Source: Nevskiales bacterium (GTDB taxonomy: Bacteria > Pseudomonadota > Gammaproteobacteria > Nevskiales > JBOICV01). From it: a DNA stretch of 64,000 nt. Shown here piece by piece: positions 1,982 to 15,653 of the stretch (positions within the stretch are counted from its first letter, which is position 1; each line of letters begins with the position of its first letter). Position numbers and translations under genes: made by a program. The notes under the pieces are model-generated. The model was not told the origin of the DNA. It made no database searches and worked only from the letters and a program-made list of their open reading frames with translations. Location of the stretch: the NCBI GenBank assembly GCA_050740255.1, contig JBOICV010000176.1, positions 3,959-67,958 of the forward strand, given 5' to 3'.

Positions 1982-4051
<2,070 letters not shown>

Positions 4052-6494: not shown

Positions 6495-7264
6495 GAAGCT
6501 ATTGCCGCATCTTGCTTCTGCTGATCTGCCCGCTCGCTGTATTGGCGGCGGAGGTGGACTCGGTGCGCGCCAAGCTGGCGGCGCGCTACACCGGCTGGCG
6601 TGATGCCTGTTTCGTGCTGGATTTAACGGTACAGCGTCCGGACGGCGGCACCCGCGAAGGCCGCGCTGAGTTGTGCCAGCTTGTCGACGGCGCCGACCGC
6701 TACGCACGCGTGCAAGTACTGGCGCCATTGGGTGCCCGCGGCATTCAGTTCATTTCGCAGCGCGGCGCCGATGGGCGCAGCCGGCAATGGATGTATACGC
6801 CGGCCAGCAAGCGCGCGGTGGCAGTTCAGGACGGTGGCGCGGAGCGGCCGTTTCTCGGCACCGACTTCAGCTCGGCGGATCTCGAGCTTTATCAGGCCGA
6901 TCCAGCGCGCGCCAAACCCGTCGCTGACGAAAGCTGCGGCGACACGCACTGCCGTATCTATGAGCTGCCGCCATCCCAGCCGCGGACAGCGACACGGCGC
7001 ATCTGGGTGGTGCGGGACAGCGGTGCCATCCACCGGGTGGACGTACTGTCGGGGACCAAACCGATCAAGCGGCTTGATATCGTCAGCGAGCTGCGCGGCC
7101 CGGAGGGTTATTGGCTGCCTGTGCAAGCCACAATGCGTGATTTGCGTAGCAGCAGCCTTACTGTGGTGACCTGGTCGCAAGCCCGCTTCAATCGAGGTCT
7201 CAAGCGGGCAGAATTCGACGCCGAAGCGCGCTGGGGCACGGGCGTTTCACGTCCGGCCCGATAA
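6491..7264 (+). CDS. outer-membrane lipoprotein-sorting (LolA-like) family protein
   Basis: Signal peptide, then ...WMYTPASKRAVAV...PFLGTDFSSADLE, the motif typical of LolA-like partners of RND/MMPL exporters. Translationally coupled to the upstream gene. Confidence 0.65.
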   Translation: MRSYCRILLLLICPLAVLAAEVDSVRAKLAARYTGWRDACFVLDLTVQRPDGGTREGRAELCQLVDGADRYARVQVLAPLGARGIQFISQRGADGRSRQWMYTPASKRAVAVQDGGAERPFLGTDFSSADLELYQADPARAKPVADESCGDTHCRIYELPPSQPRTATRRIWVVRDSGAIHRVDVLSGTKPIKRLDIVSELRGPEGYWLPVQATMRDLRSSSLTVVTWSQARFNRGLKRAEFDAEARWGTGVSRPAR

Positions 7265-7324
7265 CTCTCCAGGCCGCGACCATTGGACGGGGTAGCGCGC
7301 GGTCGGCGACAATCATCAGTTCTT

Positions 7325-8179
7325 ATGCGCCGTCCCCTTCTGATTGTCCTGCTGGCCGTGGGCTTAAGCGCCTGCCCCGGCAGCGCCATGGATGCCGCCG
7401 CCACGCGCGTGGCCACGGGTTTGCAGGATGGCATCCTCAATCACGATGACGTCGGCGTCGTGCGCGACGCGCTGCCGGGCTATCTGTTGACCATGGACGG
7501 TCTGGTTGAGGCCAGTCCGGACAATCCCCAGATCGCGCTGGCTGCGGCGCAGATCTACAGTTTTTATGCCAGCAATTTTGTGACCGAACCGGAACGCAAG
7601 AAGCGCCTCGCGGAGCGTGGCCTGCGTTACGCCAGAGCGGCCTTGTGCATGGAGCTGGATGATTTGTGCGAAACGCTGAAAACGCCGTTTGCGGAATTCA
7701 GCGACGAGGTAGAGGAGATCGAAGACGACGAACAGGTGCCGCTGCTGTACGGCTTTACCGTTGCCTGGGCCACCTGGGTGCAGGCCAATGTGGACGACTG
7801 GAACGCTATCGCCGACGTGCCCAAGATCGAAGCGCTGCTGAACAAGATCGTCGCGCTTAAGCCGCGTCACGATAGGGGAACGCCCTATATCTACCTCGGG
7901 GTGCTGTCCTCGCAACTGCCGCCGGCCATGGGCGGCAAACCGGAAAGGGCCAAGGCATACTTCGAGCGGGCCTTGACCATTTCCGGCGAGCGCAATCTGA
8001 TGGCGCAGGTCTACTACGCCAAGCAGTACGCGCGTATGGCGTTTGACCGCAAACTGCACGACCAACTGCTGGAAGAAGTGCTCGAAGCCGACCCGCGCGA
8101 GCGTGGGCTTACGCTCAGCAACACTCTGGCCCAGCAGGAAGCCCGGGAACTACTCGCCGGGAGCAAGGATTTCTTCTGA
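7325..8179 (+). CDS. TatT-like TPR lipoprotein (TRAP-transporter accessory component family)
   Basis: Lipobox LLAVGLSAC after ATG 7325, then an all-helical TPR-like body. Sits directly upstream of a DctP-type binding protein. Confidence 0.65.
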   Translation: MRRPLLIVLLAVGLSACPGSAMDAAATRVATGLQDGILNHDDVGVVRDALPGYLLTMDGLVEASPDNPQIALAAAQIYSFYASNFVTEPERKKRLAERGLRYARAALCMELDDLCETLKTPFAEFSDEVEEIEDDEQVPLLYGFTVAWATWVQANVDDWNAIADVPKIEALLNKIVALKPRHDRGTPYIYLGVLSSQLPPAMGGKPERAKAYFERALTISGERNLMAQVYYAKQYARMAFDRKLHDQLLEEVLEADPRERGLTLSNTLAQQEARELLAGSKDFF

Positions 8180-8394
8180 TTCCGTTTGTGCTGAGGTATC
8201 GAAGCACGAACGGATTAAGAATGATTGCCCTTCGATACGCCGAAGGCGTGCCCTGTCCTGAGCGCGGCGAAGGATCAGGGCGAACGGGAACGCCGGGTTC
8301 AAAGAAGGGCCGCGTGGTAAAATTTGCCCGCTGGTAAATTACCCCGGTGAATTACCCTAACCCTCGGACGCGATTGGCTTAGCTGTTCGCGCAG

Positions 8395-9411
8395 GTGAAG
8401 ATCATGTCCTTGCCACCCCTTTCCCGCTGGCTGTGCGCGCTGACGCTATTGGCGATGAGTGCGGAGGCGCCGGCCGCTACGCTCAAAATCGCGACCATCG
8501 CGCCCGAGGGCACTTCCTGGATGAAGGAGCTGCGGACAGGCGCCACTGAAATCGAGAAACGCACCGCCGGCCGCGTGAAACTCAAGTTCTTCCCGGGCGG
8601 GGTAATGGGCAACGACAAGAGCGTGCTGCGCAAAATCCGCGCCGGCCAGTTGCAAGGTGGCGCGCTAGCCTCGACCGGCCTCACCGACTTATACAAGGAC
8701 GCGCAACTCTACAGCCTGCCGATGCTGTTCCACTCCTACGAGGAAGTGGACTATGTGCGCGCACGCATGGACCAGACGCTGCAAGCCGGGTTGGAGGAAG
8801 CGGGCCTGGTGCCGCTGGGTATCAGCGAAGGCGGCTTCACCTACCTGATGGCCCAGTCCAGTATCTCCGAGGTGGAGGAGCTGAAGGGCAAGAAAGTCTG
8901 GGTGCCGGAAGGCGATCCTGTCAGCCAGGCCGCGCTCGAATACGCCGGCGTCACGCCGGTGCCGCTGCCGTTCGCGGACGTTTACACCGCGCTGCAGACG
9001 GGATTGCTGGACACCGTGTTCTCCGTCCCGACTGGCGCCATTGCCTTCCAGTGGTATACCAAGCTCAAAAGCCTGGTGGATATGCCGGTGACCTACGTGC
9101 TGGGCGTGCTGGCGATAGACAAGCGCAGTTTTCAGGCGCTCGATCCGGCCGACCAGGCGGTGATGCGGGAAGTGATCGAGAATACTTTTACGCGGCTTAA
9201 TAAAATCAACCGCGACGATAACCAGAAGGCGCTGGCCGCGCTGAAGAAACAGGGTATCGAGATCAACACGCTGGACGCGGCGGAAGAGGAGAAGCTGCGC
9301 GGCAAGGCCGAGCGCGCGATTGAAGACTTCCGCGGCAAGGGCGTTTACACACCCGAGTTGCTGGAAGACCTGCGCGGCCATCTCACCGCTTATCGCGCCA
9401 AAACGGAGTGA
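8395..9411 (+). CDS. dctP: TRAP transporter substrate-binding protein, DctP family
   Basis: Signal peptide followed by LKIATIAPEGTSWMKEL...KLKFFPGGVMGNDKSVLRKIRAGQLQG, the DctP signature. Start is GTG 8395 or ATG 8404. Confidence 0.85.
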   Translation: MKIMSLPPLSRWLCALTLLAMSAEAPAATLKIATIAPEGTSWMKELRTGATEIEKRTAGRVKLKFFPGGVMGNDKSVLRKIRAGQLQGGALASTGLTDLYKDAQLYSLPMLFHSYEEVDYVRARMDQTLQAGLEEAGLVPLGISEGGFTYLMAQSSISEVEELKGKKVWVPEGDPVSQAALEYAGVTPVPLPFADVYTALQTGLLDTVFSVPTGAIAFQWYTKLKSLVDMPVTYVLGVLAIDKRSFQALDPADQAVMREVIENTFTRLNKINRDDNQKALAALKKQGIEINTLDAAEEEKLRGKAERAIEDFRGKGVYTPELLEDLRGHLTAYRAKTE

Positions 9412-9605
9412 TGTCCAATTTGCGTTGGTCGGTACGCAGCGCCTGGTATGTAACCCAGGGTCAAGTCGAACACCGCTTTGCGGCTGCGCCCCACTCGCGA
9501 CTCGCGTCGAGCCTAACCGCTCGACCGCTCCCCGCTCGGGGGTGTCGGAGAGGTTCACCAGCAGGCCGATCTGATCGAGCTTGCCGACCACAAACGGTAA
9601 GCCCG

Positions 9606-10595
9606 CTACTTCCTTCTTCTTCCTTTCACCATGGCGCTCTTGCGGCTCGGGATCTGCGGCGCTAGCTCCGCGATCAGATCGAACAACCAGGCCACGCCTG
9701 CATCCATCATGGCCGAGCGTGTGGTGATGGCCTGAGTCGCAAAGCGGCCTAGCGGCAGCGGCGCTTCGCAGCTCGTCAGGCCAAAGCGACGGGCTTGTGT
9801 CGCGACAAGCGACTTCGGCACCGCGGCAACGAAGTCGGTCTCGGCGAGCAGCGTCAGCTCCAACATGAAGTTGGGAATCGCCAGCGCGACACGCCGCGTC
9901 CGGCCTTTCGCCGCGAGGGCCTTGTCTACGAAGCTCTCGTTGTCGCGCGTCAACGAGACCACCAGGTGTCGCTGCTTGCAGTAGTGGTCGAGTGTCGGCG
10001 CGGCCGCGAAGGGGTGGCCGGCGCGCATCGCGATGACGAACTGCTCTTCGTAGAGATTGCGGGCGACGAACCTTGCCGGGACTTCGTCGAGCGGCAGGAT
10101 CGCGATATCCAGCGTGCGCGCCTCGATCTCCTCGAGCGCCTGCTCCCAGGGGTTGCCGCCGATCCTGCCGTGCTGAGGCGGCAGGATCTGCCGCACGCTG
10201 AGGTCGATGCCGGGCGCCAGCGTGCGCAGCTTCTTCAGGAGCGGCGGCGCCAGAACGGCCGAGATGGCGTCCGGCGCACCGATCGTAAATCCGCGCGTGG
10301 ACTTCGCCGCGACGAACGGCTCTGCGGTCGAGACGACGCTGCGCACGCGCGCGAGGATTTCGGCGATCGGTTCGGCCAGTTCCGACGCGCGCTCGGTCGG
10401 CACCACGCCGCGCGGTGTCTTGAGGAACAGGGGGTCGTTGAGCAGACGTCGCAGCCGGTTCAAGCCGTGACTCACGGCCGAGGGCGAAAGGTTCAGAGCT
10501 TCGGCGGCCCTGCCGACGTGGCGCTGCTCGCGCACCGTTTCGAACAGGACCAGCAGGTTCAGGTCGGCGCGCGATAGATCAATCTGCTTCAGCAT
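9606..10595 (-). CDS. LysR-family transcriptional regulator
   Basis: N-terminal wHTH DLNLLVLFETVREQRHVGRAAEALNLSPSAVSHGLNRLR plus a substrate-binding domain. Confidence 0.9.
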   Translation of the reverse strand: MLKQIDLSRADLNLLVLFETVREQRHVGRAAEALNLSPSAVSHGLNRLRRLLNDPLFLKTPRGVVPTERASELAEPIAEILARVRSVVSTAEPFVAAKSTRGFTIGAPDAISAVLAPPLLKKLRTLAPGIDLSVRQILPPQHGRIGGNPWEQALEEIEARTLDIAILPLDEVPARFVARNLYEEQFVIAMRAGHPFAAAPTLDHYCKQRHLVVSLTRDNESFVDKALAAKGRTRRVALAIPNFMLELTLLAETDFVAAVPKSLVATQARRFGLTSCEAPLPLGRFATQAITTRSAMMDAGVAWLFDLIAELAPQIPSRKSAMVKGRRRK

Positions 10596-10811
10596 ATTGT
10601 TGAAATCATATCACTGGATTCAGCAGCGTCCGGCCCCTAGTCTTCGCGGCCACGTCGATGCGCATCGCAATTCGCGTCGGCCGATTACGTCCACACCGGA
10701 GATTTTTCAGTGCCAACTACAGACTTTCGATCCCTATCGCCTCTGGCCTTGGCGGTTCTCGCCGCACACCAAGGCTCGCTTTCCGCTTCCGACCTTCACA
10801 GCACCGCATCC

Positions 10812-11390
10812 ATGACTCGATCGCAGACGATTCAAGCTTCCGAACAACTCACCTCGCCCGAAGCAGCCGCCGTCGTCGCCTTCTGGCAGCAGGCGGGGCC
10901 TGCAATGTGGTTCGCCAAGGATGCCGACTTCGATCGGCGCTTTCGTGAGCGTTTCCTGGCTCAGCACGAGGCGGCCGCGCGCGGCGAGCTCTTCGACTGG
11001 CGGGCGACGGCGGACGGAGCGCTTGCGCTGATGGTGCTGCTCGACCAGTTTCCGCGGAATGTCTTCCGGGGAACGCCGCGCATGTATGCCACCGACGCGC
11101 TGGCGCGCAGGCTTGCGGATGAAGCCATCCGCGCGGGGCACGACCGGGCGGTCGAACACGAGCTGCAGAAATTCTTCTACCTGCCGTTCGCGCACTCGGA
11201 AGAACTGGCCGACCAGGAACGATCGGTATCGCTCTGCAGTCGCCTCGGACAGCCGGATCTGGCGCACGCCGAACACCATCGCGACATCGTACGCCGCTTC
11301 GGACGCTTCCCGCATCGCAATCCGATCCTCGGCCGCGCGATGCGGCCGGAGGAGCAGCGGTATCTGGATGAGGGCGGATACCAGGGTTAG
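10812..11390 (+). CDS. DUF924 family protein
   Basis: FWF..D..FD..FRERF...LLDQFPRNVFRGTPRMYATD...HRDIVRRFGRFPHRNPILGR is characteristic of DUF924. Start set at ATG 10812 to give the usual length of about 190 aa. Confidence 0.8.
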   Translation: MTRSQTIQASEQLTSPEAAAVVAFWQQAGPAMWFAKDADFDRRFRERFLAQHEAAARGELFDWRATADGALALMVLLDQFPRNVFRGTPRMYATDALARRLADEAIRAGHDRAVEHELQKFFYLPFAHSEELADQERSVSLCSRLGQPDLAHAEHHRDIVRRFGRFPHRNPILGRAMRPEEQRYLDEGGYQG

Positions 11391-11554
11391 AGTGGTTCGC
11401 CAATATTCTGCCTGTCATCCCGTACCATTGCCCACTGCCGCGTGCCTCAACGGTAAACTGGCGGCCCATTACCGACGCATTGTCTCAATTTCAAGAATCG
11501 TATGTTCCAGGCAACCCGAATCGCATCTAACCAGCGGCTTAACCCAGGCGTTAA

Positions 11555-11602
11555 GCGATAAGCGCCGGAGCAAAACGTGCCTAAGCGCTCGCTTGGGGCG
11601 CT
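11555..11602. repeat. direct repeat copy 1 (duplicate of the dctQ RBS and first codons)
   Basis: GCGATAAGCGCCGGAGCAAAACGTGCCTAAGCGCTCGCTTGGGGCGCT. It matches 12137..12185 apart from a 1-nt A-tract indel and 2 substitutions. Confidence 0.85.
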
Positions 11603-11628
11603 AGTCAGAGCGGCTTATACTGCTGCCG

Positions 11629-11901
11629 ATGAACTTCGTTTGGGGCCCGACCAAGGCGGAGGCCAATCTCAAGAAGCACGGAGTCAGCTTTGAAGAAGCT
11701 AGCACCGTGTTTCTCGATGTTCTGTCGGCCACCGGCGCTGATCCAGATCATTCGATGGGAGAGGAGCGCTGGATTACCTTCGGTGTCTCAAAGGAAGGTC
11801 GCTTTTTGGTCGTGTCTCACACGGATGAGGCAGACTCTGTGAGGCTCATTAGTGCCCGTCCTGGCACTGCACGCGAACGGAAACTTTATGAAGAAGGCTA
11901 G
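11629..11901 (+). CDS. brnT: BrnT (DUF497) type II toxin, second copy
   Basis: MNFVWGPTKAEANLKKHGVSFEEASTVFLD...GEERWITFGVSKEGRFLVVSHTDEADSVRLISARPGTARERKLYEE is canonical DUF497. GC content is visibly lower than the flanks. Confidence 0.85.
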   Translation: MNFVWGPTKAEANLKKHGVSFEEASTVFLDVLSATGADPDHSMGEERWITFGVSKEGRFLVVSHTDEADSVRLISARPGTARERKLYEEG

Positions 11902-12109
11902 TGGTTCCAAAGATACGCTTCGTAGCGAATACAAGCGCTCTGATTTTCCGGGGGGCATGGTTCGCGGCAAGTACGCCGCCAGAGCTGCTGCATCCTCGAA
12001 TATCGTGGTGCTTGAGCCTGAGCTTGCGGTTGCATTTCCCAATAGCGCCGCTGTCAATGATGCTCTGCGCGTAATCCTTCGTGTCGCCAAGCATGTATCG
12101 CATCCCTAA
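11888..12109 (+). CDS. brnA: BrnA-like antitoxin partner of DUF497 toxin
   Basis: 73 aa from ATG 11888, overlapping the brnT stop by 14 nt. YKRSDFPGGMVRGKYA...VVLEPELAVAFPNSAAVNDALR is typical of the small partners found after DUF497 genes. Confidence 0.65.
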   Translation: MKKASGSKDTLRSEYKRSDFPGGMVRGKYAARAAASSNIVVLEPELAVAFPNSAAVNDALRVILRVAKHVSHP

Positions 12110-12136
12110 CGAGGCGCTGCCCCCGACCGTTTTGCA

Positions 12137-12185
12137 GCGATAAGCGCCGGAGCAAAAACGTGCCTAAGCGCTTGCTTGGGGTGCT
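12137..12185. repeat. direct repeat copy 2 (authentic dctQ RBS and start)
   Basis: GCGATAAGCGCCGGAGCAAAAACGTGCCTAAGCGCTTGCTTGGGGTGCT. It contains GGAG and the GTG start (12160) of dctQ. Confidence 0.85.
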
Positions 12186-12663
12186 GGAGCAGGTCGAGTC
12201 CGCGCTGCTGGTGCTGCTGCTCGGCAGCATGGTGGTGCTGGCCGGCACGCAAATCCTGTTGCGCAACTTCTTTGACCTGGGCCTCGTCTGGGCCGACCCG
12301 CTGCTGCGCGCGATGGTGCTGTGGGCGGCGCTGCTGGGCGGATTGGCCGCGGCGCGCGGCGGCAACCGCCACATCACGGTGGATGTGATCGCGCATTTCC
12401 TGCCGCCACGCGGCAAGGCCGCCGCCGGGTTGATCGCGGCAGCTTTTACCGCCGCGCTGTGCGCGATGCTGGCCTGGGTCTCGCTCCAGTTCGTGCTGGG
12501 TGAATACGGCTCCGGCGTCACCATCTCGGGTTTGTTGCCGGTGTGGCTGAGCGCCGCGGCGATGCCGCTGGCCTTTGCGCTCATGTCGCTGCGTTTCGCC
12601 TTGCTGTCGCTGACTCACCTGGCCGCGTTACGCGCCGGGGCCAGCGCGGAACCTCCCGCATGA
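12160..12663 (+). CDS. dctQ: TRAP transporter small permease
   Basis: 167 aa with four hydrophobic helices. GTG start; ATGA overlap with dctM. Confidence 0.85.
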   Translation: MPKRLLGVLEQVESALLVLLLGSMVVLAGTQILLRNFFDLGLVWADPLLRAMVLWAALLGGLAAARGGNRHITVDVIAHFLPPRGKAAAGLIAAAFTAALCAMLAWVSLQFVLGEYGSGVTISGLLPVWLSAAAMPLAFALMSLRFALLSLTHLAALRAGASAEPPA

Positions 12664-13943
12664 TGCTGCTGCTCGCGCTGGGCTTGGTGCTGCTCGCGCT
12701 CCTGGGCGCGCCGCTATTTGCCGTCATCGCGGCCGGCGCCTTGCTCGGGTTTCACCACGCCGATGTGGGTTTGTCGGTGTTCGCCATCGAGTTCTACCGG
12801 CTGGCGGAGATGCAGGTGCTGCTGGCCATTCCGCTGTTCACGTTTGCCGGCTATCTGCTCGGCGAGAGCGGCGCGCCGCGACGGCTGGTGCGGGTGACCA
12901 ACGCGGTGCTCGGCTGGATGCCCGGCGGTCTCGCCATCGTCGCGCTCGCGGTCTGCGCCTTCTTCACCTCCATGACCGGCGCCACCGGCGTCACGATTGT
13001 CGCGATGGGTTCGCTGCTGTATCCCGCGCTAAAGCAGGCCGGTTATCCGGAGCGCTTCAACCTCGGTCTGATCACCACTTCCGGCAGCCTTGGCCTTTTG
13101 TTCGCGCCTTCGCTGCCCTTGATTCTGTATGGCGTACTGGCGCAGCAGCTTGGCGTCGGACCGGCGATTACCATCGAGGATTTGTTTCTGGCGGGCATTC
13201 TGCCGGGCCTGCTGATGCTGGTGCTGCTCGGCGGCTATAGCATCTGGACCGCGCGCCATCTCGAGCAGAAGCTGCAAGCCTTTGCCTGGCGCGAGCTGCG
13301 CGCAGCGCTGTGGGAAGCCAAGTGGGAGATCCCGCTGCCCTTCGTCGTGCTGGGCGGCATTTATGGTGGCGTGTTCGCACCGTCGGAGGCAGCGGCAGCG
13401 ACCGCTTTCTACGTGCTGATTGTCGAAGTATTCGTGCTGCGCGAGATTCCGCTGCCCAAGTTGCCGGCCGTCATGCGTGAAAGCATGGTGCTGGTCGGCG
13501 CGATTCTGGTGATCGTGGGCGTGGCCATGGCCTTCACCAACTACATGATTGACGTGGACGTGCCGGGCCGGCTGTTCGAATGGATTCAGATGCGGGTACA
13601 CGACAAGTGGACCTTTCTGATTCTGCTAAACCTGTTCCTGCTGGTGATGGGCTCTACGCTGGAGCTATACCCGGCGCTGGTGCTGGGCGTGCCGCTGGTG
13701 GTGCCGATTGCCTACGGCTACGGCATTGATCCGGTGCATCTCGGCATCGTATTTCTGACCAATATGCAGCTCGGCTTCTTCCTGCCGCCCATCGGCATGA
13801 GCCTGGTGATTGCGAGTTATCGCTTCAACAAACCCATTCTCGAGTTGTGTCGTGCGGCACTGCCATTTTTCGCGCTCCTGCTGCTGGCCTTGCTGGTGAT
13901 CACCTACGTACCGGCCTTGAGTCTGGCTTTCTTAAGCCGATGA
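12660..13943 (+). CDS. dctM: TRAP transporter large permease
   Basis: 427 aa, polytopic, DctM-like throughout. ATG 12660 overlaps the dctQ stop. Confidence 0.9.
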   Translation: MMLLLALGLVLLALLGAPLFAVIAAGALLGFHHADVGLSVFAIEFYRLAEMQVLLAIPLFTFAGYLLGESGAPRRLVRVTNAVLGWMPGGLAIVALAVCAFFTSMTGATGVTIVAMGSLLYPALKQAGYPERFNLGLITTSGSLGLLFAPSLPLILYGVLAQQLGVGPAITIEDLFLAGILPGLLMLVLLGGYSIWTARHLEQKLQAFAWRELRAALWEAKWEIPLPFVVLGGIYGGVFAPSEAAAATAFYVLIVEVFVLREIPLPKLPAVMRESMVLVGAILVIVGVAMAFTNYMIDVDVPGRLFEWIQMRVHDKWTFLILLNLFLLVMGSTLELYPALVLGVPLVVPIAYGYGIDPVHLGIVFLTNMQLGFFLPPIGMSLVIASYRFNKPILELCRAALPFFALLLLALLVITYVPALSLAFLSR

Positions 13944-14019
13944 AACTCCAGGCCGATCAACCGGTCGAAGCAGGCGAGTGGGCCCGTATAATGCGGGCTA
14001 GAAATGTAGGAGTAGCGAT

Positions 14020-14739
14020 ATGACTCAACTTGCGCGTGTTGGCGTTTTTCTTTCGCTTCTCGCTGGCGTCTTCGGCGCTGTGCTGCAACCTGCTCTCGCT
14101 GGCACCAGTGAGGAAGACAAGGCGCAGGACGCGGCCGTGGTGCTGCGTGAGCTGGTGCGTATTCCGGAAAAAGGCATTCCACCCAAATTGCTCGAACAGG
14201 CTTACGCGATTGCGGTAATCCCCGAGGTATTGAAGGTCGGTTTCGTGTTCGGCGGCCGCCGTGGCGAAGGTCTGCTCGCGGTGCGCACCGATTCCGGCAA
14301 ATGGAGCAACCCGTCTTTTATCGCGCTGACCGGCGCCAGCATCGGCTTTCAGATCGGCGCCAGCAGCACCGATATCGTGCTGGTGTTCAAGAACCGCAAG
14401 AGCATAGACCGCATCACCAAAGGCAAGATCACGCTGGGCGGCGACGCCTCGGTGGCGGCCGGCCCGGTTGGGCGCAGCGCCGAGGCGGCCACCGATATCC
14501 GCTTCGAGTCGGAGGTTTACTCCTACTCGCGCGCGCGCGGCGTATTCGCCGGGGTCTCGGCCGAGGGCGCTGCGCTGTCGATCGACGACACCGGCAACGC
14601 CGATTTCTATGATGACCGCAATATCGGCCCGCATGAGATTTTTGCGTCCACCAACCGCAATGCGCTACCCGACGCCGGCAAGGATTTTCTGCGCACCTTG
14701 GAGAAATACGCGCCGACTCACGGTACTCCAACGCAGTAG
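14020..14739 (+). CDS. SYLF (Ysc84-like) lipid-binding domain protein, secreted
   Basis: Signal peptide, then AIAVIPEVLKVGFVFGGRRGEGLL...KWSNPSFIALTGASIGFQIGA...ITLGGDASVAAGPVGRSAEA. AGGAG Shine-Dalgarno. Confidence 0.8.
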   Translation: MTQLARVGVFLSLLAGVFGAVLQPALAGTSEEDKAQDAAVVLRELVRIPEKGIPPKLLEQAYAIAVIPEVLKVGFVFGGRRGEGLLAVRTDSGKWSNPSFIALTGASIGFQIGASSTDIVLVFKNRKSIDRITKGKITLGGDASVAAGPVGRSAEAATDIRFESEVYSYSRARGVFAGVSAEGAALSIDDTGNADFYDDRNIGPHEIFASTNRNALPDAGKDFLRTLEKYAPTHGTPTQ

Positions 14740-14753
14740 CAGTAGTCACACCG

Positions 14754-15653
14754 ATGCGCGTGCGAGTAGTACTGGCGGCACTGCTATTGGGCGCCGGTGC
14801 TTTGGCGTCGGCCGCCGATACGAAACTGCCGACCGTCAATACCTCGCCGCTGCGCTTTGCGCTGCTCAAAACGGGAACGGCAAAGTCACCGGAAGCGATG
14901 GCCGTCAGCGGCGGCCGCTGGTTCACGCAGGCCAGCTTCGTGCATTCCGCGGTCTATGTGCAGCACCCCACGGGCAGCTTTCTATACGACACCGGACTCG
15001 GCGCGCAGGTTGATGCCCAGTTCAAGGCCGAGATGCCTTGGTGGGCCAAACCCCTGATGCCGTACGAAGTAGATTCGCCCGCGCGTCAGCAGCTCGCGGA
15101 TGCGAAGCTGCCGCTGCCGGAGCGGATTTTTCTGTCGCATGGACACTGGGATCACGTCAGCGGCCTGATTGATTTCCCGGATGCCGAAATCTGGATCACG
15201 GCGGAGGAAAAGAATTTTCTGGCTACCGGCAAGCCACCCGCGGTACTGCCGTCACAGGTCAATGCACCGCAACTGCGCTGGCGGCAGTTTGAACTGCTCG
15301 GTCCAAGCTATGCCGGCTTTGCACAAAGCCTGGATGTATTCGGCGACGGCAGCGCGATACTGGTGGGCATGCCGGGCCATACGCCGGGTTCGCTCGGCCT
15401 GTTTCTGACCAGCGTGTCGGGCAAGCACTACTTCTTTATCGGCGACACCGCCTGGCATTTGCGCGGCGTGACCCACGAGTCGCCCAAATTCCCGGTGGCG
15501 CGCAAGTTGGCGGATAGCGATCCCACCGCCACCTTGGCATTGCTAAAGCAAATCCACGCGCTGCAACTGGCCAATCCGGACTTGATCGTGGTGCCGGCGC
15601 ATGATGCCGCGGTGCAGGACGCGGTCGGCTATTTCCCGAATTGGGTGGAGTAG
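14754..15653 (+). CDS. MBL-fold metallo-hydrolase, secreted
   Basis: Signal peptide; metal motif LSHGHWDHVSG; later GHTPGS and a PAHD-type motif. Confidence 0.8.
   Translation: MRVRVVLAALLLGAGALASAADTKLPTVNTSPLRFALLKTGTAKSPEAMAVSGGRWFTQASFVHSAVYVQHPTGSFLYDTGLGAQVDAQFKAEMPWWAKPLMPYEVDSPARQQLADAKLPLPERIFLSHGHWDHVSGLIDFPDAEIWITAEEKNFLATGKPPAVLPSQVNAPQLRWRQFELLGPSYAGFAQSLDVFGDGSAILVGMPGHTPGSLGLFLTSVSGKHYFFIGDTAWHLRGVTHESPKFPVARKLADSDPTATLALLKQIHALQLANPDLIVVPAHDAAVQDAVGYFPNWVE

Follow-up and report, generated by a model that had tools for sequence, protein, structure and literature searches.

Nested acquisitions between dctP and dctQ in a TRAP operon of a Nevskiales bacterium, and a proposed recombinational origin for the 49-bp repeat around its brnT cassette

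How does a small toxin-gene cassette come to lie inside a transport operon, between two copies of the translation start of the gene that follows it? The stretch of DNA we analyzed, a 64-kb piece of a Nevskiales bacterium genome that we call the window, carries a TRAP operon of the TPAT type with the gene order tatT-dctP-dctQ-dctM, in which dctP and dctQ lie 2.75 kb apart and are separated by a lysR gene, a DUF924 gene and, immediately before dctQ, a brnT gene with a partner open reading frame (ORF) bracketed by a direct repeat. The original prediction for this locus held that the cassette had entered at the 5' end of dctQ and duplicated about 48 bp of target by an att-type or recombination-mediated event. 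The insertion and an origin by some form of recombination are upheld by the comparisons below, and plain duplication of a target is not, since 24 nt of the repeat are non-ancestral and an inverted copy of dctP sequence runs into one of its copies. With modest confidence we favor homology-facilitated illegitimate recombination, or a related recombination-mediated event, as the source of the repeat; the term is used as in PMC8116780 and PMC5312590.

The ancestral state of the junction is preserved in relatives. We scanned species-representative genomes for DctM, obtaining 80 loci, and took the closest relatives from a DctQ protein search. The order tatT-dctP-dctQ-dctM was found, contiguous, wherever both genes were present (about 70 relatives), the predicted dctP-dctQ gap is below 100 nt in all but eight of the 80 loci and mostly below 25 nt, and none of the 80 has lysR, DUF924 or brnT between the two genes. 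In L084 (84% amino acid identity in DctQ; L-numbers denote other contigs or loci compared with the window) and in L086/L087 (78%), the dctP stop overlaps the ATG start of dctQ as TGATG (GATTGATGC), and in L085 (76%) the gap is 34 nt. The dctP TGA of the window at 9409-9411 still overlaps an ATG at 9411-9413 (TGATG, 9409-9413), the ancestral start position of dctQ, while dctQ itself now starts at GTG 12160, as does the identical 167-aa DctQ on the NCBI record of a metagenome-assembled genome named "Nevskiales bacterium". These empty sites show that the 2.75 kb between dctP and dctQ were acquired, in at least two modules, and they bear out the predicted splitting of the operon. Some more distant relatives have larger dctP-dctQ gaps of 120-770 nt (L028, L041, L045, L072, L062, L015 and L012), including a repetitive, partly N-masked one in L028 (2370-3137) and one with a 106-aa ORF in L041 (7020-7524), and the junction seems insertion-prone in general.

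The nearest relative, L083 (88% amino acid identity in DctQ; 86% nucleotide identity over dctP and dctQM), has an insert of its own: 668 nt at 1198-1865, between dctP and dctQ, with a brnT-like gene (PF04365, E = 5e-27) and a partner, and with no lysR-DUF924. Its BrnT is 54% identical to that of the window, and BrnTs of cassettes in unrelated genomes are closer (78-82%). The first 15 nt after the dctP stop are common to L083 and the window (blastn homology up to 9426) and include TTTGCGTT at 9419-9426; the right junction is not shared. With a common left edge and a different right junction, either the site was opened once and the cassette later exchanged, or it was hit twice. In L083 a TAG immediately precedes the brnT frame, no possible start codon (ATG, GTG or TTG) stands ahead of the conserved N terminus, and the gene caller left the gene uncalled; the toxin may have been inactivated there and the partner kept. 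A candidate decayed flanking repeat in L083 was not significant.

The direct repeat in the window begins with an exact 22-nt stretch (AGCGATAAGCGCCGGAGCAAAA, at 11554-11575 and 12136-12157) and continues, after one extra A in copy 2, for 31 nt at 94% identity (11572-11602 vs. 12155-12185). As had been predicted, the copies (49 and 50 nt, 96% identical) differ by one A indel and two substitutions, copy 2 holds the GGAG and GTG of dctQ, in agreement with the NCBI start, and copy 1 retains a ribosome-binding site and a GTG that opens a frame, here 38 codons long, across the brnT start. Read in the dctQ frame, both substitutions change the amino acid (TTG to TCG and GTG to GCG, copy 1 compared with copy 2). 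No third copy occurs in the window, where the chance expectation is zero. Two run-level assemblies (L001 and L002) are 100% identical to the window over copy 1, brnT, the partner, copy 2 and dctQ, and because independent assemblies match the window across both copies, the repeat is not an assembly artefact. The notion of a misassembly, a binning error or a chance repeat could appeal to the source, a metagenome-assembled genome, and to the start of the L001 contig near a module boundary, but with three assemblies agreeing base for base over both copies we hold it to be extremely unlikely. L001 starts at 11384, 6 nt before the DUF924 stop that forms the right boundary of the lysR-DUF924 module, a starting point that could reflect strain heterogeneity in the sampled population.

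The repeat is composite. Its first 24 nt (AGCGATAAGCGCCGGAGCAAAAAC) are absent from the ancestral junction, and its last 25 nt are ancestral dctQ codons (codons 2-5, CCT AAG CGC TTG, match CCC AGG CGT CTG and CTC AAG CGG CTG in relatives); since the first 24 nt are non-ancestral, the duplication came after an earlier insertion. At its right end the repeat stops on TTGGGG(C/T)GCT, and both the last 11 nt of copy 2 (TTGGGGTGCTG) and dctQ codons 6-9 (CTTGGGGTGCTG) resemble the left arm of the cassette; we denote this look-alike of the arm within dctQ TTGGGGTG. To the left of both copies, weaker similarity (~65%) extends for ~48 nt (p = 0.003, tested alone): the left flank of copy 2 is the 3' end of the partner gene, and that of copy 1, ATCGCATC--TAACCAGCGGCT, looks like the 3' end of another cassette. 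Neither copy folds, as RNA or DNA, better than shuffled sequence. Five other brnT-cassette contexts (L083, L088, L090, L096 and L097) lack the 49-mer. Relatives without brnTA do not have the repeat, nor is it a dispersed sequence, and the two findings named as refuting the original prediction thus did not appear. Viral contigs, scanned with a 22-mer of the 49-mer, returned nothing; in JGI metagenomes there was one match, 25 nt identical to the upstream half of copy 2 (CAGCGATAAGCGCCGGAGCAAAAAC), in L093 (1367-1391, minus strand), inside a LeuA/HMGL-like ORF of an unrelated contig that encodes …SAISAGAKT… there; the match is longer than expected by chance and probably coincidental. A supposed third, decayed dctQ 5' end just after the dctP stop was rejected, as its anchored alignment did not surpass those of 20% of random 28-mers.

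Sequence from the end of dctP lies, inverted, at the left boundary of copy 2. The 20 nt at 12127-12146 are complementary at 18 of 20 positions to the last 20 coding nucleotides of dctP, a match reached in 0 of 3,000 shuffles (best shuffle, 15). The left arm (CGCTTATCGCGCCAAAACGG) belongs to the normal dctP gene and is found in empty-site relatives as well, and the right arm is therefore the copy. It is contiguous only at copy 2, where the boundary at 12136 cuts through it; the sequence to the left of copy 1 differs, and so the left context of copy 2, spacer and cassette, is the older one, the reverse of what plain target duplication on entry of the cassette would lead one to expect. Inverted repeats, the left one native, thus enclose the entire 2.7-kb insert, an arrangement suggestive of fold-back or template switching during the first rearrangement. 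The arm bears directly on the simplest account of the repeat, in which the cassette entered in situ, through an att-type integrase or widely staggered cuts, and duplicated a 49-bp target to give L-49-insert-49-R. Such an entry would explain why a direct repeat tightly brackets a demonstrably mobile unit, and why the GC break coincides with the repeat, and the 96% identity of the copies would mark the event as recent. But with the 8 nt that immediately precede copy 2 (CCGTTTTG), the inverted dctP match grows from 11 to 20 nt; on in-situ entry these bases would form the end of the insert, and the chance of such a match would be ~1e-5. The same cassette family sits in L088 and L090 without the 49-mer or flanking repeats of comparable length (only short ones at chance level). 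Transposases are known to duplicate 2-14 bp, and 49 bp is far outside that range. No integrase, transposase or tRNA was found near the junction, tRNA and tmRNA genes are absent from 7000-15000, and the neighbors within ~8 kb are metabolic or transport genes. We consider in-situ duplication rather unlikely; the att-type part of the prediction is not borne out, and its remarks that integrase is lacking and that the repeat is too long for a transposase target duplication stand.

A one-ended homologous event fits all four of the features just described, the composite repeat, the inverted arm, the arm look-alike and the similarity to the left. In the course we propose, an early event, whose left edge is common with L083, would have parted dctQ from dctP and given it a new 5' untranslated region (UTR), in which the dctP 3' end is copied in inverted orientation, together with a fresh Shine-Dalgarno (SD) sequence and a GTG start. 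The lysR-DUF924 module would have been inserted second and the present brnT-partner cassette added third, presumably in that order, with the 49-bp repeat as the footprint of the third step. The donor would have been a sibling strain with the cassette directly upstream of the same dctQ UTR (cassette-CCGTTTTGC-49-mer-dctQ), and the recipient, without the present cassette, would have had the arrangement lysR-DUF924-(older cassette end)-UTR-dctQ. Homologous recombination in dctQ-dctM would have anchored the incoming DNA on its right, and at the left end the cassette arm GTTAGGGGTGTG would have been joined illegitimately to its look-alike in recipient dctQ codons 6-9. Because this joint would lie 49 nt downstream of where donor-recipient homology begins, the UTR, start and nine codons would come to stand on both sides of the cassette, those of the recipient as copy 1 and those of the donor as copy 2, and the two substitutions and the indel would be allelic differences instead of later mutations. 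A 583-bp circle formed by excision between the arm and its look-alike could, on Campbell-type reinsertion, yield the same product. Selection would have spared only products that kept an intact dctQ start.

The cassette has a history independent of this operon. BrnT matches PF04365 over the full profile (positions 1-77 of 77, E = 6.5e-24), phrog_4399 "ribonuclease toxin" (E = 9.8e-17) and PDB 7vd7 "toxin" (E = 5.9e-12), and it has 1,839 homologues, the nearest of them (74-82% identity) in unrelated genomes (Panacagrimonas, Serpentinimonas, Sulfuriferula and others). A partner ORF adjoins brnT in L083, L088, L090, L096 and L097, and the toxin-first overlap of the window, in which the last 14 nt of brnT are shared with the partner from its ATG at 11888 onwards, recurs in L088, L090 and L097. 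Of the predicted brnTA pair, brnT is confirmed and membership of the partner in the BrnA family is not: the partner, a "hypothetical protein" at NCBI, gave no match to Pfam, NCBIfam, PHROG or PDB sequences even at E values up to 10. Its C-terminal pattern (IVVLEPELAVAF…VNDALRVIL) resembles, by eye only, a ribbon-helix-helix motif; we use brnA as a label by position only and presume a toxin-antitoxin role. Homology to the cassettes of L088, L090, L096 and L097 (72-76%) is confined to 11610/11615-12087/12118, with MAFFT carrying the left end back to about 11589, and the surroundings are different each time: after a methyltransferase gene in L088, after an FMO gene in L090, before a GFA gene in L096 and in a further context in L097. 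Judged from these alignments, brnT and its partner form a discrete mobile unit of ~0.5 kb that occurs in at least five unrelated contexts. Its GC content is below that of the flanks in every host; in the window, the 533-534 nt between the repeat copies have 55.7% GC vs. 62% for the window and 69% for dctQ, in keeping with the lower GC noted originally.

The cassette ends in 12-nt inverted repeats, GTTAG(G/C)GGTGTG and CACACCCCTAAC, the right one of which includes the partner stop codon, and when joined, the ends of the L096 and L097 units close a hairpin (z = -3.6 and -2.5 vs. shuffles). The arms are degenerate in the window (TTGGGGCGCT at 11593-11602 and, stop codon included, CGCATCCCTAAC at 12099-12110), and its cassette ends fold no better than shuffles. 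A conserved TTATACTG, at 11615-11622 in the window and 6-8 nt before the brnT ATG there and in L088, L090, L096 and L097, may be the -10 element for a nearly leaderless toxin mRNA. An element of ~25-68 nt ending TTTGC(G/A)-TTAG flanks the L096 cassette on either side and precedes the L097 cassette (3075-3150 and 2530-2553 in L096, 30-90 in L097); its ~68-nt form (CTCGAA..TTCGCTGCGCTCACTG..GCGC.CTTCAGCTTTGC(G/A)TTAG) stands downstream of the cassette in L096 and upstream in L097, and a GFA gene (PF04828) directly follows the L096 cassette. This region of L096 and L097 has the look of a chromosomal integron array whose attC sites belong to a conserved family, and the cassette appears integron-cassette-like. 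Both BrnT/BrnA and GFA (PF04828) genes have been described as cargo of integrons (PMC7370490, PMC7923331), and isolated cassettes without integrase are common and can be inserted by IntI outside integrons and their att sites (PMC4889954; bioRxiv 10.1101/2022.09.11.507474).

These features invite a reading of the junction in which IntI acted in trans on an integrase-less array of the CALIN/SALIN kind and the repeat copies with their left flanks are attC-like sites of 69 and 72 nt, from CTAAC to GC-TT, so that a duplication event is unneeded. The RYYYAAC/GTTRRRY-like complementary ends of the cassette family speak for it, as do the attC-like repeats ending TTTGCG-TTAG on either side of the L096 cassette, followed by the GFA cassette, the presence of TTTGCGTT after the dctP stop in both the window and L083, the different cassettes at this site in sister lineages and the capacity of IntI just mentioned. 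Yet the 3' halves of the putative attC sites hold the dctQ SD, start and N-terminal codons, which have homologous counterparts in the dctQ genes of empty-site relatives. The two window elements fold no better than shuffles (z ~0), and the supposed crossover is preceded by C instead of G. By tblastn no IntI-like ORF was found in the 64-kb window, a weak test given the approximate probe. We judge this reading very unlikely. A broader version, that the junction is a free-standing landing pad for integron-type cassettes in this Nevskiales clade with integrase in trans, strikes us as distinctly unlikely, and we would put no higher the two propositions that go with it: that an attC-like 3' half absorbed the host SD, start codon and first codons, making the 49-mers two such sites, and that different brnT cassettes (window vs. 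L083) were captured or exchanged repeatedly.

The lysR-DUF924 pair is a separate arrival, as alignment with relatives, proposed with the original prediction, makes clear. The divergent lysR(-)/DUF924(+) pair is found intact, with other neighbors, in L094 and L095; nucleotide identity of L094 to the window is 83% in 9654-10714 and 78% in 10860-11390, with the DUF924 stop codon (11390) as the exact end of the homology. No donor of DUF924 closer than 78% identity was found. The last 16 codons of LysR (9606-9653) are not homologous to the LysR proteins of L094 and L095; with a tail from non-homologous DNA, the gene appears to have been truncated at the module boundary on arrival and re-terminated in local DNA. 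We describe lysR-DUF924 as an acquired two-gene module.

Between DUF924 and copy 1, 11391-11553 has 53% GC, like the cassette and unlike the lysR-DUF924 module, and contains a motif like the 3' end of a cassette (ATCGCATCTAACCAGCGGCT, 11520-11539). It may be the remnant of an older cassette, and its similarity to 12086-12131 has p = 0.003. Searches with Pfam and with an nhmmer profile of six cassettes, both at E values up to 10, gave no remnant in either 9412-9653 or 11391-11553, and tblastn candidates for a brnT remnant in the former and a partner remnant in the latter were rejected at noise level, with equally good wrong-strand matches. The stretch matters for the idea that the locus passed through a tandem duplication, in which unequal crossing-over between the arm and its look-alike would have doubled a 583-bp unit of cassette, spacer and dctQ 5' end. 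The repeat period of 583 nt does equal cassette plus UTR, and the low-GC stretch is roughly in register with the partner 3' half and spacer, shares the GC content of the cassette and not that of the DUF924 module, and begins where DUF924 homology exactly ends at 11390. A single event should age uniformly, however, and identity is 96% in the 49-mer vs. ~55-65% in the adjacent supposed remnant, which nhmmer and protein searches do not recognize. This explanation is rather unlikely in our view, and its companion step, that the upstream copy was later truncated by the lysR-DUF924 insertion and then decayed, is equally so.

The same stretch supplies a further point against tandem duplication. It contains a 21-mer (GCGGCTTAACCCAGGCGTTAA, 11534-11554) that occurs once in the window and is 100% identical to 2002-2022 of the unrelated contig L088, not to the spacer of copy 2. 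Within it, GCTTAAC and GTTAAGC form a perfect RYYYAAC/GTTRRRY pair separated by 6 nt, and in L088 the 21-mer is intergenic, 1 kb upstream of the brnT cassette and before a methyltransferase gene. It also resembles the dctP-stop/dctQ-start junction of L086 (17/19 with a 2-nt gap); viral contigs and plasmids gave nothing meaningful.

Several points weigh against homology-facilitated illegitimate recombination as the source of the repeat. Neither a donor-type nor a recipient-type strain was recovered, and the recombination event is unobserved. The look-alike matches the arm at only ~8-10 of 12 nt, and the window holds ~90 such sites on both strands; its position at the joint has a p of roughly 0.05, which is suggestive. 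The process, reportedly described by de Vries and Wackernagel in 2002, is said usually to produce deletions, not duplications, and Nevskiales are not known to be competent. The weak similarity in register between 11391-11553 and the partner 3' half (p = 0.003 to 0.07) fits an older cassette remnant, and the favored model does not account for where the inverted dctP arm and the 21-mer came from.

The acquisitions have probably changed how the permease genes are expressed. With dctQ separated from dctP and lysR convergent towards dctP, expression of dctQM must come from the DUF924 side, the brnT side or both; translational coupling of dctQM to dctP would have been lost, and dctQM is probably rewired to a LysR-controlled or toxin-antitoxin promoter. 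The SD-GTG frame of copy 1 across the brnT start could mask toxin translation or couple to it. Consensus scans of the locus for promoters and terminators were uninformative, and no Rfam family was found in 9300-12400. The locus offers a clean, datable case of a coupled operon tolerating nested acquisitions, with a translation start, rebuilt or duplicated, rescuing the downstream gene on each occasion, and it indicates that a toxin-antitoxin cassette, integron-like elsewhere, can settle in a housekeeping operon without a nearby recombinase. Different brnT cassettes at the same junction in two sister lineages hint at a hotspot or at exchange outside integrons. Coordinates of all features are collected in Table 1; the encoded proteins match the complete TRAP set (PF16811, PF03480, PF04290 and PF06808), and it is by the presence of tatT that we class the operon, on family matches, as a TPAT-type TRAP system.

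Table 1. Features of the split TRAP operon and its inserts, in window coordinates
Feature	Position	Strand	Basis and remarks
tatT (TRAP T-component)	7283..8179	+	PF16811 TAtT, E = 3.3e-69; upstream of dctP in nearly all relatives
dctP (solute-binding subunit)	8395..9411	+	PF03480, NF037995
Inverted repeat, left arm	9387..9406	+	Native dctP coding sequence
Segment between dctP and lysR module	9412..9653		First 15 nt common with L083; homology to L094 lysR from 9654
lysR (LysR-family regulator)	9606..10595	-	PF00126 and PF03466
DUF924 gene, divergent from lysR	10710..11390	+	PF06041, E = 1.1e-57; NCBI start at 10812
Low-GC (53%) non-coding stretch	11391..11553	+	Cassette-3'-end-like motif and 21-mer hairpin motif
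Direct repeat copy 1	11554..11602	+	SD GGAG 11567-11570, GTG 11577; dctQ 5' UTR and codons 1-9, non-functional
38-codon remnant ORF	11577..11693	+	Opens in copy 1, crosses brnT ATG out of frame; no family match
Mobile brnT-partner cassette	11593..12118	+	Left arm, TTATACTG, brnT, partner gene, right arm
brnT, BrnT-family ribonuclease toxin, 90 aa	11629..11901	+	PF04365
Partner ORF, 73 aa, presumed antitoxin	11888..12109	+	Overlaps brnT by 14 nt
Inverted repeat, right arm	12127..12146	+	Inverted copy of dctP end, across spacer/copy 2 boundary
Direct repeat copy 2	12136..12185	+	Functional dctQ 5' UTR, SD 12149-12152, GTG 12160, codons 1-9
dctQ (small TRAP permease), intact	12160..12663	+	PF04290; 88% amino acid identity to L083 DctQ
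dctM (large TRAP permease), intact	12660..13943	+	PF06808, TIGR00786

Among known systems, the cassette is closest in content to the type II toxin-antitoxin system BrnT/BrnA, whose prototype, from Brucella abortus, was reportedly described by Heaton et al. in 2012. The likeness lies in a full-length BrnT ribonuclease-toxin domain, a toxin gene that comes first, a small overlapping partner and a compact two-gene unit, as reviewed for BrnT/BrnA in PMC5086665; the window partner differs in carrying no signature of BrnA or another family and in being conserved, as a "hypothetical protein", only beside BrnTs of this subfamily. In form, it resembles isolated integron cassettes (SALIN/CALIN, attG insertion): a ~0.5-kb unit in many contexts, always downstream of a co-directional gene, with ends that resemble R'' (…CTAAC) and R' (GTTAGGG…) and pair when joined, with brnT and GFA as typical cargo and with no integrase nearby. 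The attC-like sequence of the window is, in contrast, degenerate or absent, and its flanking repeat is host dctQ sequence. IntI recombination is not known to duplicate its target, whereas the window has the 49-bp repeat, and the intI/attI neighborhood typical of an integron array was not found in the window by the weak tblastn test.

As to the mode of entry, homology-facilitated illegitimate recombination shares with the window one end anchored in an extended homologous region (dctQ-dctM), a second joint at a short GC-rich microhomology, and independence from any element-encoded enzyme; reported outcomes are mostly insertion with deletion, and the window, where the event is inferred, shows a 49-bp duplication. 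Transposons and insertion sequences (IS) likewise leave a direct repeat around inserted DNA, but one of 2-14 bp instead of 49 bp; here the repeat is partly non-ancestral, no transposase is present and a 17-25-nt spacer separates the right end of the cassette from the repeat. Integrase-mediated genomic islands are bounded by attL and attR, and this locus differs from them in having no integrase, no tRNA or tmRNA in 7000-15000 and a repeat that does not accompany other copies of the cassette. The Campbell-type alternative follows the logic of lambda dgal, in which aberrant excision is followed by Campbell-type reintegration: a mobile unit carrying host sequence reintegrates by homology and duplicates a host segment on both sides. 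There is no phage or integrase here, and the circular 583-bp intermediate is hypothetical.

The operon keeps the tatT-dctP-dctQ-dctM order of TPAT-type TRAP operons, maintained in ~70 relatives, and departs from them in the 2.75 kb between dctP and dctQ and in the regulator gene convergent towards dctP. The locus represents three known kinds: a BrnT-family cassette, an isolated integron-like cassette and an operon broken by horizontal transfer. It is otherwise fairly ordinary bacterial genome tinkering, which leaves the understanding of these systems unchanged and adds a well-resolved case, and what sets it apart from them is the long duplication at the junction and the different cassette at the same junction in a sister lineage.

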